Source: an archaeon (GTDB taxonomy: Archaea; Iainarchaeota; Iainarchaeia; Iainarchaeales; CSSED10-239). From it: a DNA stretch of 32,000 bases. The position numbers were made by a program, and so were the translations under genes. Below are positions 2,522 through 24,963 of the stretch, in pieces. Position 1 is the first letter of the stretch; every line of letters starts with the position of its first letter. Below the pieces are notes generated by a model. It had not been told where the DNA came from. It ran no database searches and saw nothing but the letters and a program-made list of their open reading frames with translations. The stretch covers positions 1 to 32,000 of the forward strand of contig DAOOUC010000006.1 of assembly GCA_035390665.1 (NCBI GenBank). Direction: 5' to 3'.

Positions 2522-3565
2522 ATGTTTTCTAAGGCAAAGTTTGTGTTTTCCAAAAAGGCAATCACAGATAATTATTCTAAATTACAAGAATTAACTGACA
2601 TTGTAGCCTATAGCGTAAAATCAAATCCTTACCTAACAGAAACACTTGAACAAAAAACAAACTCCTTATTTCTAATACATCATATTAATGAACTAAATTA
2701 TATCAAAGACATAAATAGAATAATATTTATGCTACACTGCCCAGAAAAAGAAGAACTAGATATTCTTTTTAAAAAAGGTATAGACAAATTCATAGTGGAT
2801 AATATTAATGACCTAAATTTCTTAGAAAAATACATAAAAACACAAAATAAACAAATAACCTTACTTCTAAGAATGAGATTAAAAGAATATACAGTACAAA
2901 CAGGAAGATACTTTGTATATGGCTTCTTCTCAAAAGACATAAATGAACTAATACCTGAACTAAAAACTAATAATAACATAAAAGAACTAGGAATACATGT
3001 GCATAGAAAAACACAAAACCTCTCAGAATGGAACCTAGTTGAAGAACTAGAGGAGTCTTTGTCTAAAGAAACTTGGGAAAACCTAAACTACCTAGACATT
3101 GGCGGAGGAATACCAATAGATTACAAAAACGTCAAAGCAGAAACCCTTAAAGACATCTACAAGAAAATAAAAGAACTAAAAAGCCATATCAATAGAAAAA
3201 ACATAAAACTAATAATTGAACCAGGAAGAGCAATTGCTGGACCTAGCGGTAAACTTATTGCTACTATAAAAAACATTGTTGGAGATAATATATTTATTGA
3301 TGCCTCTGTCTTTAACTCAGCTATGGATTTAATTGTAGCTAATGTTAAACTTCTTGTGGAAGGAGAACTAGAGGAAACAGATAAAGGAGCTAAAGCTTAT
3401 GTCATTAAAGGACTAACTCCTGCTTCAGAAGACATCTTTAGATATAGAGTATATCTTAAAAATCCTAAAGTAGGAGACCAAATAGTCTTTCTTAACGCAG
3501 GGGCATACATTTACTACACAGATCTTTTCAATCTTGAAAGACCAGAAATAGTTTTTGAGGAATAA
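2522..3565 (+). CDS. PLP-dependent Orn/DAP/Arg decarboxylase family enzyme (probable arginine or ornithine decarboxylase)
   Basis: VAYSVKSNP (PLP-lysine motif, cf. YAVKAN), DIGGGIPIDY and EPGRAIAGPSG are fold-type III decarboxylase signatures. An agmatinase gene follows. Confidence 0.75.
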   Translation: MFSKAKFVFSKKAITDNYSKLQELTDIVAYSVKSNPYLTETLEQKTNSLFLIHHINELNYIKDINRIIFMLHCPEKEELDILFKKGIDKFIVDNINDLNFLEKYIKTQNKQITLLLRMRLKEYTVQTGRYFVYGFFSKDINELIPELKTNNNIKELGIHVHRKTQNLSEWNLVEELEESLSKETWENLNYLDIGGGIPIDYKNVKAETLKDIYKKIKELKSHINRKNIKLIIEPGRAIAGPSGKLIATIKNIVGDNIFIDASVFNSAMDLIVANVKLLVEGELEETDKGAKAYVIKGLTPASEDIFRYRVYLKNPKVGDQIVFLNAGAYIYYTDLFNLERPEIVFEE

Positions 3566-3568
3566 ATT

Positions 3569-3685
3569 ATGAATAAAGAAATAAAAAATAAAACTAAGGC
3601 AAAAAAAGAGTTGTTTTCTTTATTAGATAACCCTGCAAAAATTAAAGGCAAGATACCTAAACATAGAAGGGAACTTTATGAATAA
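3569..3685 (+). CDS. Possible small basic protein (38 aa), absent from the ORF track
   Basis: ATG lies 3 nt after the decarboxylase stop, and the TAA overlaps the agmatinase start by 8 nt. Sequence: MNKEIKNKTKAKKELFSLLDNPAKIKGKIPKHRRELYE. Packing suggests it is real, but no homology is recognised. Confidence 0.35.
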   Translation: MNKEIKNKTKAKKELFSLLDNPAKIKGKIPKHRRELYE

Positions 3686-4574
3686 TTTTATGAATCTTCC
3701 AAAGGAATATAGGGACAAGAACAAGTCAAAGGTTGTAATACTTCCAATATCTTTTAAGACAAAGACCACAAGAAAGAACGAAAGTCATCTTGGGCCTAAG
3801 GCAATCATAGAGGCAAGCCAAGAACTAGAATACTTTGAAGAAGATTTACTTTGTGAGCCTCACGAGAAAGGCATTTACACAGAAGAACAATTAACAATTA
3901 AAGAAACAGACTTTACAAAGATTAAACACAAAATCCTGGACAAGACAAAGAAAATAAACAACAAGTTTCCAATAATCCTTGGTAGCGACCACTCAACAAC
4001 AATTCCAGTAATCGAAGCATTGGAAGAAAAAGAAAAAGATTTTGGAGTAATTGTGTTTGACGCGCACTCAGATTTAAGAGAGCAGTGGGGAAAAGACACT
4101 TGGTGGCATGCTTGCGTGTCAAGAGAAATATCAAAGAAACATAAAACCCTTCTTGTTGGTGTAAGATCAATGGACAACAACGACATAGATTTCTTACAAT
4201 CAAAAAAAGGAAACAATACTGGACTAATATTTGCAAAAGACCTATTGTCTTCTAAGAAACAACATAACTGGGATCTTTCTTCCTGTTTTGAATTAGAGGA
4301 AAAGTTAAGACCATTACCAAAGAAAGTTTATATCTCAATAGATGTTGATGTGTTTGATCCATCAATCATAAGATACACAGACACTCCTGAACCAGGAGGT
4401 CTTGACTGGACACAAGTAAATAATCTTTTAAAAAAGATTTTTGAAGAAAAAGAAGTAATTGGAGTAGACCTAGTTGAGTTTTCTCCACAGCCTAAAGAAA
4501 AAGCAGTATTCTGCGAAAGCTATCTTCTTTCAAAACTGATTTATAAAATAATTGCATATAAATATTATAGGTAA
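3678..4574 (+). CDS. speB: Agmatinase / ureohydrolase family
   Basis: Arginase-family Mn-binding motifs are present: GSDHSTT, VFDAHSDLR, SIDVDVFDPS, GVDLVEFSP. Confidence 0.8.
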   Translation: MNNFMNLPKEYRDKNKSKVVILPISFKTKTTRKNESHLGPKAIIEASQELEYFEEDLLCEPHEKGIYTEEQLTIKETDFTKIKHKILDKTKKINNKFPIILGSDHSTTIPVIEALEEKEKDFGVIVFDAHSDLREQWGKDTWWHACVSREISKKHKTLLVGVRSMDNNDIDFLQSKKGNNTGLIFAKDLLSSKKQHNWDLSSCFELEEKLRPLPKKVYISIDVDVFDPSIIRYTDTPEPGGLDWTQVNNLLKKIFEEKEVIGVDLVEFSPQPKEKAVFCESYLLSKLIYKIIAYKYYR

Positions 4575-4584
4575 GTGAAAAAAT

Positions 4585-6117
4585 ATGTTTAAGAAAATAT
4601 TAGTTATTTTAATATTATTAATGTCTGTGGGGTTAGTGCTTGCCGCAGATTCTAATTGTGAAGACGAAAACACAACAGTTTGTACTATTGAACCTGGAGA
4701 ACCATTGTTTGGAAAATTACTTACAAAAGACACAATTAACCAAACAGAAAAAACAGAAATATTTGGTTTAGTTTACTTTACAGGAATTGGTTGTCCTCAT
4801 TGTGCTAAAGTTGATCCAATCTTATTAAAGAAAATGCCATTTGAAAATAATAATTTAGCAATAATTGAATATGAAGTCAAATTAAATCAAGAAAATGCAA
4901 AACTAATGGTTGAATATAATAATGAGTTTGAATCAGGTCTTGGTTATCCATTAATTATTTTAAGTCAATATGATTCTTTTGTTTCAGGAGACATAGTCCC
5001 TAAAGTTGAAAGATCACTAGAACAAGGAAAAACAAACGATGTTCCTTTCCCAGCAACAGTTTATGAAAAAGGAACAACAGCCTTTGAAAATATAGAATTT
5101 AGTAAATTAAAAGGCAAACCAGTCATCTGGTATAATGGAAAAGTAATTTCAAGATTCTATGATGGAGAAACCCCAGTTGATGATAAGATATTACATGAAA
5201 TATTAAATGCAAAGACTCCAGAAGAGATTGAAGAAGTAATAAAGAAATATGATTACCACACAATAGATGATAAAAGAATACAACTATCTCAAACTGAAAT
5301 TGTTTTTGATAACACAATACATTTACCTGGTTGGAAAATATATTATAATGGGGAAAGTACACTTAGTTATGTTGCTTGTCCAATAACCACAGAAGTAACA
5401 GAACAAGACTGTGCAGAAAAGAAAAAAATTCCATTACTTACAGTTGTTTCTTTAGCTTTAGTTGATGCTGTTAATCCTTGTGAGTTTGCAGTTTTAATTA
5501 TGTTATTGATTGCTATAATGACTGCATATCCAAAAAATAAGAAAAAAACACTTCAAGCAGGACTTGCATTTACTGCTGCAATTTTTATTTTATATTTTAT
5601 TTATGGAGTGTTATTAATAAATGTCTTTAAATTAATACCAGGAATTGATTCAATTAGAACTGTAGTTTATACAATTATTGCTTGTATTGCAATATTGATT
5701 GGACTATTACAATTAAAAGACTTCTTTGATTATAAGCCAGGAGGATTTTTAACAGAAATGCCAATGTCGTTTAGACCAAAGGTCCAAAAGATGATATCAA
5801 GTATAACTTCACCAGGGGGTGCGTTTATTGTTGGAGCATTTGTAACACTTTTCTTGATGCCATGCACTATTGGGCCATATGTGATTTTAGGAAACTTGCT
5901 AGCATCTGAGACAATCCTTGCAGCTCTTCCACAGTTATTATTGTACAATATAATTTTCATACTTCCAATGCTTGCTATAACCTTTACAGTTTACTTTGGA
6001 GTAAGAAAAGTTGATCAAGTAGCAGAATGGAAAGCAAGAAACACAAAGTACATGCATTTAATAGCAGGAATCATAATGTTATTAATAGGTATTGGAATGT
6101 TATTAGGGTGGTTTTAA
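4585..6117 (+). CDS. Secreted thioredoxin-fold (CPHC) domain fused to a CcdA/DsbD-type thiol-disulfide transporter membrane domain
   Basis: Signal peptide MFKKILVILILLMSVGLVLAADS. GIGCPHCAKVDP is a Trx/DsbA-like active site. The C-terminal multi-TM region carries VDAVNPCEF and LMPCTIGPY, the two conserved Cys of CcdA/DsbD. Confidence 0.7.
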   Translation: MFKKILVILILLMSVGLVLAADSNCEDENTTVCTIEPGEPLFGKLLTKDTINQTEKTEIFGLVYFTGIGCPHCAKVDPILLKKMPFENNNLAIIEYEVKLNQENAKLMVEYNNEFESGLGYPLIILSQYDSFVSGDIVPKVERSLEQGKTNDVPFPATVYEKGTTAFENIEFSKLKGKPVIWYNGKVISRFYDGETPVDDKILHEILNAKTPEEIEEVIKKYDYHTIDDKRIQLSQTEIVFDNTIHLPGWKIYYNGESTLSYVACPITTEVTEQDCAEKKKIPLLTVVSLALVDAVNPCEFAVLIMLLIAIMTAYPKNKKKTLQAGLAFTAAIFILYFIYGVLLINVFKLIPGIDSIRTVVYTIIACIAILIGLLQLKDFFDYKPGGFLTEMPMSFRPKVQKMISSITSPGGAFIVGAFVTLFLMPCTIGPYVILGNLLASETILAALPQLLLYNIIFILPMLAITFTVYFGVRKVDQVAEWKARNTKYMHLIAGIIMLLIGIGMLLGWF

Positions 6118-6977: not shown

Positions 6978-6990
6978 CTTAATTAATTAT

Positions 6991-6998
6991 ATTTATAA
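6991..6998 (+). promoter_or_regulatory. TATA-like box upstream of the GC-rich leader and tRNA-Gly
   Basis: ATTTATAA lies about 25-30 nt upstream of where the GC-rich segment begins (about 7026). Confidence 0.35.
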
Positions 6999-7028
6999 TC
7001 CTTTTCCTACTTAATATTAATAGAATAC

Positions 7029-7104
7029 TGCGATTTTTGTTAGGTGCGAGCAACCGCAGATAACTGCGGAAACAATTGCGCGCGAGCCTAGCGAAACAGG
7101 CTCT
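7029..7104 (+). ncRNA. GC-rich structured leader/element directly abutting the tRNA-Gly 5' end (copy A)
   Basis: A GC-rich island in AT-rich DNA. Hairpins CCGCAG-ATAA-CTGCGG (7054-7069) and GAGCC-N10-GGCTC (7084-7103). GCAA/TTGC and TGCG/CGCG flanks extend the first stem. It shares three sequence blocks with 18439-18575 in the opposite orientation. Confidence 0.4.
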
Positions 7105-7176
7105 GCAACTATAGTCTAGCGGTTAGGATCTCAGCCTTCCAAGCTGATGAGCCGGGTTCGAATCCCGGTAGTTGCA
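7105..7176 (+). tRNA. tRNA-Gly (anticodon UCC)
   Basis: Manual cloverleaf: acceptor GCAACTA/TAGTTGC, anticodon stem TCAGC/GCTGA with loop CTTCCAA, T-arm CCGGG-TTCGAAT-CCCGG. No encoded CCA. T-run follows. Confidence 0.85.
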
Positions 7177-7244
7177 CTTTTTTAATTATAGTCTATTTTT
7201 GTCTAATAAAAACATTTTAAAGAGTTATCTCTTACTATTTTTAT

Positions 7245-15006: not shown

Positions 15007-16502
15007 AATTCCAGCTGATCCTGCTGGTGGATACTGCTATTAGAGTTTGACTAAGACATGCAAGTTTGAAAGTCTCGGCCATGAGAGACTTTGGCAGACG
15101 GCTCAGTAACGCGTGGTCAACCTACCTTTCTGATAAGTTAATCTTGGGAAACTGAGGATAATGCTTAATAGAAAAACAAATCTGGAATGATTGTTTTTTC
15201 AAAGGTCTTGCACTCATGCGTGTAAGATGCGGAAAGATGGGACTGCGTCAGATTAGGCTGTTGGCAGGGTAACTGCCTACCAAACCGAAGATCTGTACGG
15301 GCCTTGAGAGAGGGTGCCCGGAGAAGGAAACTGAGATAAGGTTCCTAGCCCTACGGGGTGCAGCAGTCGCGAAACTTTTACAATGCGGGAAACCGTGATA
15401 GAGAGACTCTAAGTGCCAGCAAAAACTGGCTTTTATATAGCTTAGATAGCTATGTGAATAAGGGGGGGGCAATATGCGTGCCAGCCGCCGCGGTAATACG
15501 CAATCCTCGAGTGGTATCCAGCTTTATTTGGCTTAAAGCGTGTGTAGCTGGTTTATTAAGTCTTTTGTGAAAGCAGTGAGCTCAACTTATTGAATTGCAA
15601 AAGATACTGGTAGGCTAGAGATAGGGAGACGTCTGGGGTATTCCTAGAGTAGGAGTAGAATCTTAAGATACTAGGAAGACCACCTGTGGCGAAGGCGCCA
15701 GACGAGAACTAGTCTGACAGTGAGACACGAAAGCTGGGGGCGCAACCCGGATTAGATACCCGGTTAGTCCCAGCCGTAAACGATGCGAATTAGGTGTTGG
15801 GTTAACTACGAGTTAACTCAGGGCCGAAGGGAAACCATTAAATTCGCCGCCTGGGGAGTACAGTCGCAAGGCAGAAACTTAATGGAATTGGCGGGGGTGC
15901 ACTACAAGGGGTGGATGCTGCGGTTTAATTGGATGAAACGCCAGATATTTTACCAGAACAGACAGCAAGATGATGGTCAGTCTAAAGGGCTTACCTGATG
16001 CGCTGAGAGGTGCTGTATGGCCGTCGCCAGCTCGTACTGTGAAGCTTCCTGTTAACTCAGGTAACGGGCGAGACCCATGTTATTAGTTGCTACTTTCTTT
16101 AGTGATAAGGAGAGGCACTCTAATAAGACTGCATTGGTAACAATGAGGAAGGAATGGGCGAAGGCAGGTCTGTATAGCCCGATTGCTCTGGGCAACACGC
16201 GGCATACAATGACTAGGACAATGAGTCTCTAACCCGAAAGGGGGTGGCAATCTCAGAAACCTAGCCGAAGTTCGGATTGTGGGTTGCAACTCACCCACAT
16301 GAAGCTGGAATCCCCAGTAATCGCGTGTCACTATCGCGCGGTGAATATGTCCCTGCGCCTTGCACACACCGCCCATCAAGCCAGTTGAGTAGAGTGTGGA
16401 TGAACTCTAGCCTATTACAGGTTAAAGTAATTCTACATTTTGCGAGACGGACTAAGTTGTAACAAGGTGTCCGTAGGGGAACCTGCGGACGGATCACCTC
16501 CT
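15007..16502 (+). rRNA. rrs: 16S ribosomal RNA (archaeal type)
   Basis: 5' AATTCCAGCTGATCCTGCTGGTGG (cf. ATTCCGGTTGATCCTGCCGGAGG). GTGCCAGCCGCCGCGGTAATAC, GGATTAGATACCC, GCACACACCGCCC. 3' GTAACAAGGT...GGATCACCTCCT. About 1.5 kb. Ends are good to about +/-5 nt. Confidence 0.95.
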
Positions 16503-18300: not shown

Positions 18301-18366
18301 TTAAAATAAACATTATTTATTGGACAAATATCAATTTATAATAATTTCTTTAACTAATCTATCTAT

Positions 18367-18438
18367 GGGCTTCTAGTTCAATGGTAGAATATCTCCTTCG
18401 CATGGAGAAGGTTGCGAGTTCGAGTCTCGCGAAGTCCA
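18367..18438 (+). tRNA. tRNA-Ala (anticodon CGC)
   Basis: Acceptor GGGCTTC/GAAGTCC with G3:U70, anticodon stem TCTCC/GGAGA with loop TTCGCAT, T-arm GCGAG-TTCGAGT-CTCGC. TATA (TTTATAATAA) lies about 30 nt upstream. Confidence 0.85.
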
Positions 18439-18575
18439 TGAGAGCCGGTTTCGGTCGTGCTAAACAAATCGCATCTGTGATTTCTTGGCATCCAGAAAAC
18501 TTATAGTTTTCTTGAGCTCGCGCCCAATGGTGTCGGTTCGTGCGCAATGGATTTCGCGGTTATCCGCAATGATTA
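18439..18575 (-). ncRNA. GC-rich element abutting the tRNA-Ala(CGC) 3' end (copy B; inverted and rearranged relative to 7029-7104). The transcribed strand is unknown.
   Basis: Read on the minus strand it contains GCGGATAACCGCGAAATCCATTGCGCACGAACC, which matches 7056-7088 at 26/33 positions. It also contains TGCGATTTGTTTAG (cf. 7029-7043) and CGAAACCGGCTCT (12/13 vs 7092-7104). Confidence 0.4.
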
Positions 18576-18591
18576 ATTTATATTTATTTCT
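18571..18591 (+). promoter_or_regulatory. Promoter (TATA TTTATATTTA) for tRNA-Ala(AGC)
   Basis: GATTAATTTATATTTATTTCT recurs at 18695-18715 with one mismatch. The TATA box ends 24 nt before the tRNA 5' end. Confidence 0.5.
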
Positions 18592-18837: not shown

Positions 18838-18945
18838 TGCGTTTTTCTTTCAAGAAACACGCGGAAAAGAAACTACTTATTTTGCTATTCTATTTTTTAG
18901 ATAACTTTATAAATTATATATTTCTATATTATATTGTGATAATTT

Positions 18946-19946: not shown

Positions 19947-20190
19947 AGTAGCTGGTGTTTTGGTTGTTTTGGGTTTCTAATCCAAAAAGGAAAGTCCACT
20001 CACTAGGTTAAAATTGTTTTTTGAGTAGAAAGGAACACGGCTTCTTGTCATTCAACAGATGATGTGTTAAACTGATGGACAAGAAGAGAGGCTGAAAAAT
20101 TGCAAAAGACAATTCTAGTGCAAGGAAGTCAAACTTCTGCTTAGACAAATAAACCAAATTAGTACAGAAAGTGGCTTATAGCCAGTTACT
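19947..20190 (+). ncRNA. rnpB: RNase P RNA (short, ~244 nt)
   Basis: P1 pairing AGTAGCTGG (19947-55) with CCAGTTACT (20182-90). CR-I-like AGGAAAGTCCAC, AGTGCAAGGAAG, and CR-V-like ACAGAAAGTGGCTTATAGCC. Confidence 0.8.
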
Positions 20191-24750: not shown

Positions 24751-24828
24751 ATGGAATAAACAGTAGGTATTTATATAATTTTTCTTTCTTAATTATTATA
24801 TCAAGCAATTGATTAAAAGGAAAATTAT

Positions 24829-24955
24829 CCCTCCTTAGCATAGCGGTTAGTGCGTCCGGCTGTAGACTAAAAGATTACACTCTTTTTTTGATTGTGGCAA
24901 TCCACATCAAAAGGCAGTGACCGGAAGATCCCCAGTCCAAATCTGGGAGGAGGGA
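24829..24955 (+). tRNA. tRNA-Tyr (anticodon GUA) with a 54-nt intron (24866-24919) at canonical position 37/38
   Basis: Acceptor CCCTCCT/AGGAGGG gives C1:G72 (archaeal/eukaryal Tyr identity). D stem GCAT/GTGC. Anticodon stem TCCGG...CCGGA is split by the intron after CTGTAG. T-arm CCCAG-TCCAAAT-CTGGG. Confidence 0.8.
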
Positions 24956-24963
24956 ATCCGACT
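24950..24963 (+). repeat. Direct repeat copy 1 (GAGGGAATCCGACT), overlapping the last 6 nt of tRNA-Tyr
   Basis: Exact 14-mer, repeated at 26058-26071. Confidence 0.6.

Follow-up and report, generated by a model that had tools for sequence, protein, structure and literature searches.

Two short GC-rich islands, each touching a tRNA gene, lie in the window, the 32,000-nt stretch of DNA analysed here, and they raise the question of whether such islands are signals that serve the adjacent tRNAs, the arms of an inversion switch or copies of a mobile repeat. The window covers positions 1 to 32,000 of contig C6 in G000, an archaeal MAG of 848 kb in 21 contigs that is 86% complete and has a GC content of 28%, and it contains one archaeal 16S gene and six tRNAs. 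Copy A lies in front of tRNA-Gly(UCC), which is intact at 7105-7177 on the plus strand according to both ARAGORN and Rfam (66 bits), and copy B lies behind tRNA-Ala(CGC), also intact (18366-18439, plus strand, 66 bits). The GC content is 0.44-0.45 in both islands, compared with about 0.25 in their surroundings. The 16S rRNA gene at 15008-16502 is solitary, with tRNA-Glu 560 nt upstream and no 23S gene in the window. With regard to the tRNA complement of this genome, we also recorded a tRNA-Tyr gene with an intron (129 nt, window 24828-24956), a tRNA-Trp gene with an intron (167 nt, C4:9717-9883) and a tRNA-Ile gene with a UAU anticodon (C2:38875-38952).

An earlier note on this DNA had described three blocks shared, in a different order, between A and the minus strand of B, and this description withstood every check. 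Block Y (7056-7088 versus 18567-18535 on the minus strand, 26 of 33 positions identical) is the best local alignment of A with the reverse complement of B; its score of 31 was reached by none of 2,000 dinucleotide-preserving shuffles (mean 15.2, sd 2.4, maximum 28), and alignment of the two copies on the same strand scored only 13. Blocks Z (7029-7043 versus 18473-18460) and X (7092-7104 versus 18453-18441) were recovered at the positions given for them, the order of the blocks is indeed unlike between the two copies, and X abuts the tRNA in both, as A ends at 7104, directly before the +1 of tRNA-Gly, and B starts 1 nt after the discriminator base of tRNA-Ala(CGC). The compensatory change from GCAG/CUGC to GCGG/CCGC in the Y hairpin is real as well, being one of at least four compensating stem variants found in 13 Y modules. 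Copy A folds with −32.6 kcal/mol (z = −4.1, none of 200 shuffles as good). For copy B, the fold restricted to nested pairs does not stand out from shuffles (z about −1.7 to −1.9), as expected given that a pseudoknot makes up part of its structure. The similarity between A and B is no greater than that to other copies elsewhere: the X unit of A is identical to one in G002, and the Y module of B matches one in G001.

Searches with BLAST, a profile HMM (nhmmer) and a covariance model placed A and B as two of approximately 26 loci in G000, and six congeners gave 5-18 matches. The core unit of this family, X, is about 31 nt long and reads AYTGSGCGCGAGCY-(N)-GASCGMAAC-CRGCTCT; its ends are AYTG or GCTG on the 5' side and CTCT or CTCA on the 3' side. 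In the long form, for which 19 examples from seven genomes were aligned in a model of 88 positions, two hairpins (hp1 and hp2) are inserted in the loop of X. Block Y is an optional 5' module, present in at least 13 instances, that consists of a 5-6-bp hairpin with an AUAA-type loop followed by GAAAUCC, and a second 5' module, W (CCAGU...CUGG), goes with the GCUG-type X units. These parts are also found inside one another, as at C18:5874-5932 and in B itself, or in 52-nt tandem arrays of W plus X, which comprise at least five units at a contig end in G001 (the arrays lie at C30:22271-22614 and C12:18809-18891, loci L132-L136 and L143). Two near-identical GC-rich units of about 110 nt in G000 (C14:500-616 and C12:11990-12110) start with a truncated X (ATTGCGCGCGAGCCGAGCGCAACCAG) and continue to ...GGGAUCGCAACACCUUUUCUAAAGGGGUUCCACUGGACACCUACCCCCCCG, and pieces of this unit recur beside X copies at C1:21301, on C15 of G001 and on C8 of G004.

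The alignments carry a clear structural signal. P1 of the short form is a 6-bp stem that is 97% paired, with compensatory changes at five of its six pairs, and its conserved 8-nt loop, A-S-C-G-M-A-A-C, pairs back to the 5' tail UUGS to give a second helix, P0. Because P0 and P1 cross, X would be a compact H-type pseudoknot. The diagnostic column pair of P0 is CG in 24 copies, GC in 11, UA in one and UG in one, and is unpaired in none of the 37. Over the 37 distinct short forms, 93.8% of the cells are paired under this fold, versus 22-42% when the partners are slid; the corresponding values for the long form are 87.8% and 30-46%, and 13 of its pairs have changed on both sides. With both helices supported by this covariation, X and the long form are predicted to fold as H-type pseudoknots. 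The loops of X, of 3, 1 and 3 nt, are presumably feasible sterically, judging from the general geometry of pseudoknots. The sense strand is probably the one that folds, as conserved pairs contain 54 G-U cells versus 21 A-C cells on that strand, a count that lends modest support to this assignment. A G-U pair in P0 becomes an A-C mismatch in antisense, and copies in trailers and at stop codons therefore cannot form the pseudoknot within the host transcript. A pseudoknot conserved together with its G-U pairs exceeds what most DNA repeats need, and this hints at a role at the level of RNA.

Several other structural readings of the islands were considered and rejected. Small self-cleaving ribozymes (hammerhead, HDV-like, twister, pistol or hatchet) did not appear in a scan of both regions with Rfam 15 at E ≤10, which returned only tRNA and noise, and a hammerhead or HDV-like reading of the GAAAC motif fails as there is no CUGAUGA core, the topology is wrong and the short form lacks equivalents of P3 and P4. 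On inspection, the loop is not a K-turn or K-loop either, because the G-A pairs are misplaced. A split or trans-spliced tRNA of the Nanoarchaeum type was discarded because both tRNAs are complete (66 bits each) and inverted repeat copies explain the complementarity of A and B.

With these modules in hand, both islands can be read as composites. Upstream of A, at a distance of about 30 nt, a TATA-like box (attatatttataat, 6986-6999, plus strand) may act as the promoter of tRNA-Gly; it is kept at the orthologous position in G008, G006 and G003 and is similar to the tttatatttatttc boxes that precede the tRNA-Ala genes. Copy A begins at 7029-7053 (plus strand) with block Z plus GTGCGAGCAA, which match GCGATTTGTTTAGCACGACCGAAAC of the long-form alignment; block Z corresponds to the 3' arm of hp2, so that the 5' portion of A represents a long-form tail, truncated to this arm and the junction. 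A Y module follows at 7054-7074 (plus strand; hairpin CCGCAG-AUAA-CUGCGG, then AAACA), and a 30-nt short form of X occupies 7075-7104 (plus strand; nhmmer E = 1.5e-7, with a match to the covariance model). In this predicted pseudoknot, both stems of which covary, P1 pairs 7084-7089 with 7098-7103 and P0 pairs 7076-7079 with 7091-7094, and the gap to the tRNA +1 is 0 nt. Copy A is thus a long-form remnant plus Y plus X, set between the putative tRNA-Gly promoter and the tRNA. As the box lies so close upstream and is conserved at orthologous loci, A must be transcribed, as a leader of 80-90 nt, which would then be cut off by RNase P.

Copy B is built on the minus strand from a Y module at 18549-18569 (hairpin UUGCGG-AUAA-CCGCG, then AAAUCC, assigned from the alignment and from comparison of the Y modules), the truncated 5' part of an older X unit at 18530-18548 (ATTGCGCACGAACCGACAC) and a long form at 18441-18529 that comprises P0, P1, hp1 and hp2 (88-nt model; covariance model R1, 99.2 bits, E = 8.6e-26, in agreement with the alignment and pair counts). 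This long form is convergent on tRNA-Ala(CGC), with its X (3') end at 18441, 1 nt from the discriminator base. G007 has an uninterrupted Y+X at this site, and the long form of G000 appears to have been nested into the older X or to have replaced the 3' part of it. On the far side, B is bounded by the TATA-like box of tRNA-Ala(AGC) (18577-18590, plus strand), a box kept before each tRNA-Ala gene in G003, G007 and G002. Copy B therefore consists of Y, a truncated X and a nested long form, placed in inverted orientation in the trailer of tRNA-Ala(CGC); it is antisense to the tRNA-Ala cluster and would form only simple hairpins in the tRNA transcript.

Two other elements were seen in this part of the window and in related positions. 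A distinct second repeat family occurs in tRNA 3' trailers, with a CCUUUUCUUU...AAAGAAAAGG hairpin followed by ...CAUUCCAAAAGAA...; it is present at 18839-18880 of the window, from C19:5346 and C17:2989 onward in G000 and, at L043 and L044, after tRNA-Ala(AGC), and weak covariance-model matches indicate similar units in G001, G002, G006 and G007. A candidate RNase P RNA lies at 19947-20190 on the plus strand (RF00373, 60.7 bits, E = 6e-17, full model length); it was missed by the default Rfam scan of the window because its score is below the gathering score of 84.

The family has a narrow distribution. It is found in 7 of the 10 genomes of the genus, all of which are rich in the element (G000, G001, G002, G004, G006, G007 and G008); in the covariance-model search, G003 and G009 gave zero copies and G005 only two weak matches. 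Two sister genera of the same family, g4 and g5, contain a few copies each, and in the other families of the order only one borderline match of 30 bits was obtained among the 151 genomes of the order searched. A pattern scan over one genome per prokaryote species returned four related archaeal MAGs and single matches in GC-rich bacteria, which we read as chance, and the viral contigs scanned for the pattern gave no match. By these searches, the repeat appears to be confined to one family of AT-rich DPANN archaea with tiny genomes.

Comparison of orthologous sites shows how readily the copies come and go. The spacer between rpoA' and rpoA'' is occupied by an X in G000, whereas five congeners have nothing there; G017, which belongs to another genus, has an X copy (L163, C27:6004-6034) directly after the rpoA' stop at the same spacer site, and these two may be either independent hits on a hot spot or an old polymorphism. 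In FtsY of G000, an X lies in frame within the disordered N-terminal region and encodes PLRASPSETGS. Its only orthologous copy is a diverged one in G008; it is missing in G006, G007, G003 and G002, the last of which carries a copy of its own at another position of FtsY. More in-frame copies occur in a PLD-like protein and a HerA-like ATPase, and a nucleotidyltransferase-like ORF contains the repeat twice in antisense; all of these frames are open, and both orientations occur within ORFs. The sites of A and B behave in the same way. In the tRNA-Ala(CGC) trailer there is only an AT-rich spacer in G003 and G002, Y+X in G007 and Y plus truncated X plus long form in G000, and the tRNA-Gly(UCC) leader has a complete long form in G006, a 130-nt mosaic of other modules in G008 and an AT-rich remnant in G003. 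This pattern of turnover is that of an insertion element with fast local rearrangement and not that of a fixed signal.

Where the copies meet tRNA genes, they obey a rule. Every tRNA-linked copy meets its tRNA with its 3' (X) end, either in tandem, 0-3 nt before the +1, or convergently at the discriminator base, and no copy in G000 or its relatives meets a tRNA by its 5' end. Tandem and convergent cases number 7 and 2 in G000 and 12 and 7-8 in its congeners, with further cases in G019, G016, G015 and G021. Nine of the 26 copies abut a tRNA end, about 70 times the expectation even under the assumption that copies fall only in DNA outside long ORFs (P ~6e-15). A further five copies between genes either stop 1-3 nt short of the stop codon of a convergent protein gene or overlap it, and the terminal CTA of stop-codon copies often provides the TAG stop. 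Approximately 35 of the 44 tRNA genes in G000 have no copy, and several tRNA genes (Leu-AAG, Asn, Ser-UGA, Leu-UAA and Gly-UCC) are filled in more than one species, a recurrence that could reflect function rather than ancient insertion. In both tRNA configurations, the P1 helix is about 1 nt away from the 7-bp acceptor-stem sequence, and the docking junctions coincide with the cleavage sites of RNase P and tRNase Z. We infer that the element is inserted 5' of the strand that forms the cloverleaf, whichever DNA strand this is; selective retention at tRNA ends is the alternative to targeted insertion. Complementarity between P1 and the adjacent acceptor stem was also considered and was dropped, being inconsistent across copies.

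These observations bear unequally on the three explanations that the earlier note had offered. The inversion of the 11.4-kb segment that carries the 16S rRNA gene is now highly improbable. A and B do bracket this segment and are inverted relative to each other, but the blocks they share are short (33 nt at 79% identity, plus blocks of 13-15 nt) and rearranged, the two are only a pair among some 26 dispersed copies, and in G003, which is free of the GC-rich repeats, a single contig shows tRNA-Gly and the tRNA-Ala cluster with unchanged order and orientation; G008 appears collinear too, with tRNA-Gly and tRNA-Glu on the same strand at a similar spacing. A module that serves the host is unlikely. 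Such a hairpin or pseudoknot would be kept at the acceptor stem to aid tRNA biogenesis, perhaps because it displays the cleavage site to RNase P or tRNase Z, fends off exonucleases or shields adjoining transcription units from one another, and the stop-codon copies would be stabilisers of 3' ends like REP. The junctions exactly at mature tRNA ends, the strongly conserved fold, the same isoacceptors filled in several species (though with differing forms) and the leader copies, which must be co-transcribed given the TATA box upstream of them, would all suit a processing or stability module, and for the leaders this part of the proposal can stand as possible. As a primary role, however, it is hard to reconcile with a majority of tRNA genes that do without a copy, with orthologous sites that are empty in congeners, with the lack of any copy in G003 and G009 and the mere two weak matches in G005, and with copies inside ORFs in both orientations; moreover, the copies in trailers and at stop codons read antisense in the transcript of the host, and there the mismatch in P0 makes the pseudoknot impossible. 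The proposal of a mobile element that targets tRNA flanks fared better, as the copies are dispersed, polymorphic for insertion and very strongly linked to tRNA ends in an orientation-specific way; what has to be given up is its specificity for tRNAs, since stop codons, ORFs and the repeat's own copies are also hit. We therefore consider it probable that the two islands are composites drawn from a non-autonomous family of selfish repeats, rather than a signal dedicated to tRNA processing or a switch for inversion; their family membership, the covariation of the fold, the insertion polymorphism and the docking rule are demonstrated by the comparisons above.

A different possibility is that the sense transcript itself, above all that of the long form, is active, as the product of a small-RNA gene or of an element with an RNA stage. 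Its 3' end would be cut at the adjacent tRNA or at an antisense-tRNA cloverleaf, and new copies would arise by reverse transcription or template switching at processed tRNA ends, hence the junctions at +1 and the discriminator base. We regard this as doubtful. The junctions do lie at RNase P and tRNase Z sites, not at transcript boundaries, and show 0-3 extra nucleotides, the conserved G-U pairs favour a sense-strand fold, lone long forms in other genera converge on the 3' ends of tRNAs and are preceded by TATA-like boxes, and G000 and G007 encode a reverse transcriptase (RT). However, TATA-like strings are common in DNA of 72% AT, no CCA is present at the trailer junctions, docking at stop codons is left unexplained, no RT was found in G006, G002 or G001, and the RT at hand is part of an ordinary DGR that has a TR/VR pair of its own and no copy of the element close by. 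In the most explicit version, X would be a pseudoknotted, minihelix-like RNA of about 10-11 stacked bp plus one 3' nucleotide, with ends set by the tRNA-processing enzymes, and thus a retro-type 'tRNA-end hitchhiker' whose copies are joined to the processed +1 or discriminator base of a tRNA by reverse transcription, template switching or priming. Such an element would explain both the junctions on RNase P and tRNase Z sites and a pseudoknot that forms on the sense strand only, but we hold it, and the manner of joining with it, to be a long shot.

For the selfish repeat that we favour, movement within genomes and turnover among species would generate a BIME-like mosaic of X, long form, Y, W, arrays and nested copies. 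Mobility may involve a folded single-stranded intermediate that is recognised by a trans-acting enzyme and guided to the foot of the acceptor stem, so that the element would land or survive with the 3' (X) end against a gene terminus, be it a tRNA +1, a discriminator base or a stop codon, and would also land or survive in frame within tolerant regions of proteins. The search for such a mobilising enzyme found none. A Y1/RAYT transposase (PF01797) had no match in G000 (86% complete) and was found only in G008, where the repeat is not near those copies, and TnpB was missing from G000 and found only in G002; because the compared genomes are all incomplete MAGs (59-87% complete), such absences are weak evidence. 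A GIY-YIG enzyme was rejected as mobiliser, as the sole match is an ORF of about 530 aa, probably UvrC, that occurs in all genomes, those free of the element included. The only RT of G000 was rejected likewise, belonging to the DGR on C13, and the repeat is not an IMH-like target of that system, which has a different 3' end and no X copy on its contig. The DGR is complete at C13:876-4602, with VR at 2101-2219 at the end of a 450-aa ORF, TR at 3231-3349 and RT at 3571-4602, and TR and VR are 83% identical, most mismatches falling at adenines of the TR, the pattern that a DGR should show. With regard to the hallmarks of DNA transposition, the ends TTGCGCG and CCGGCTC are not inverted repeats, so that terminal inverted repeats are absent, and no clear target-site duplication was seen, the flanks being YA...TN in AT-rich DNA.

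The repeat resembles several known systems, and its nearest analogues, the first two below, likewise lack a known transposase. Rickettsia palindromic elements (RPE) were reportedly described by Ogata et al. in 2000. These repeats, small and structured, occupy a reduced, AT-rich genome and have no known transposase (PMC10969869). Like the archaeal repeat, RPE have no genes of their own, occur in frame in functional protein genes, beside or within RNA genes and between genes, and are polymorphic between species; an in-frame insertion that orthologues lack is seen here in FtsY, where the insert has no counterpart in G006, G007, G003 and G002. The likeness is one of kind, as RPE are bacterial and longer (about 100-150 nt) and sequence homology is not expected. 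RPE are not known to form a pseudoknot or to dock by one end on mature tRNA ends or stop codons. A second parallel comes from the GC clusters of yeast mitochondria and from the GC-rich palindromes found next to tRNA genes in the mitochondria of Neurospora, as far as these are outlined in PMC4478555 and the 1981 paper cited there. Both are GC-rich palindromic units in small, very AT-rich genomes that are mobile, form tandem arrays, merge or nest and flank tRNA genes, and no dedicated transposase is known from these accounts. They differ in being organellar and unrelated in sequence, and the yeast clusters use an AG target site, whereas the archaeal repeat has a conserved-loop pseudoknot and orientation-specific docking at the tRNA +1 and discriminator base.

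REP sequences and their BIME mosaics carry a conserved GTAG or CGTC tetranucleotide tag at one end and are mobilised by RAYT (PMC3733652). They share with the archaeal repeat the format of 20-40-nt imperfect palindromes, the multi-module mosaics and the location at gene 3' ends, and in both a strand-specific fold is probably recognised as single-stranded DNA; the copy number of about 26 loci in G000 and the mosaics of X, Y, W and long form with nested copies and arrays fit this pattern. The archaeal repeat has neither a GTAG/CGTC tag nor a RAYT/Y1 in G000, and it therefore fails membership of the REP/BIME class; in addition, its copies within ORFs and at tRNA 5' ends set it apart. PATE derived from IS200/IS605, and MITEs, are likewise short, non-autonomous and hairpin-rich, and a single-stranded intermediate is plausible for them as for the archaeal repeat, but no parent IS was found for the latter, which lacks terminal inverted repeats and a clear target-site duplication and is unlinked to the Y1 copies of G008. 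Overall, we count the family among the small, selfish palindromic repeats, within which its fold and its target rule are unusual.

DPANN genomes, at about 1 Mb, are considered streamlined, and to our knowledge such small structured repeats have hardly been studied in these archaea. Beyond the description of the two islands, our analysis adds the long form, the pseudoknot, the distribution at family level and, chiefly, the rule of docking at tRNA ends. The repeat is also a source of annotation artefacts, as it can produce long 'leaders', false ORFs and an apparent complementarity of distant loci. In G000, a family without genes occupies about a fifth of the tRNA genes, alters where core genes (rpoB and rpoA' among them) have their stop codons rewritten, and extends FtsY by additional peptides. 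The docking rule, together with a pseudoknot supported by covariation, provides a concrete handle on the mechanism by which the family spreads, and if it is true that this spread is mediated by RNA, the family would represent a new type of archaeal retro-element.
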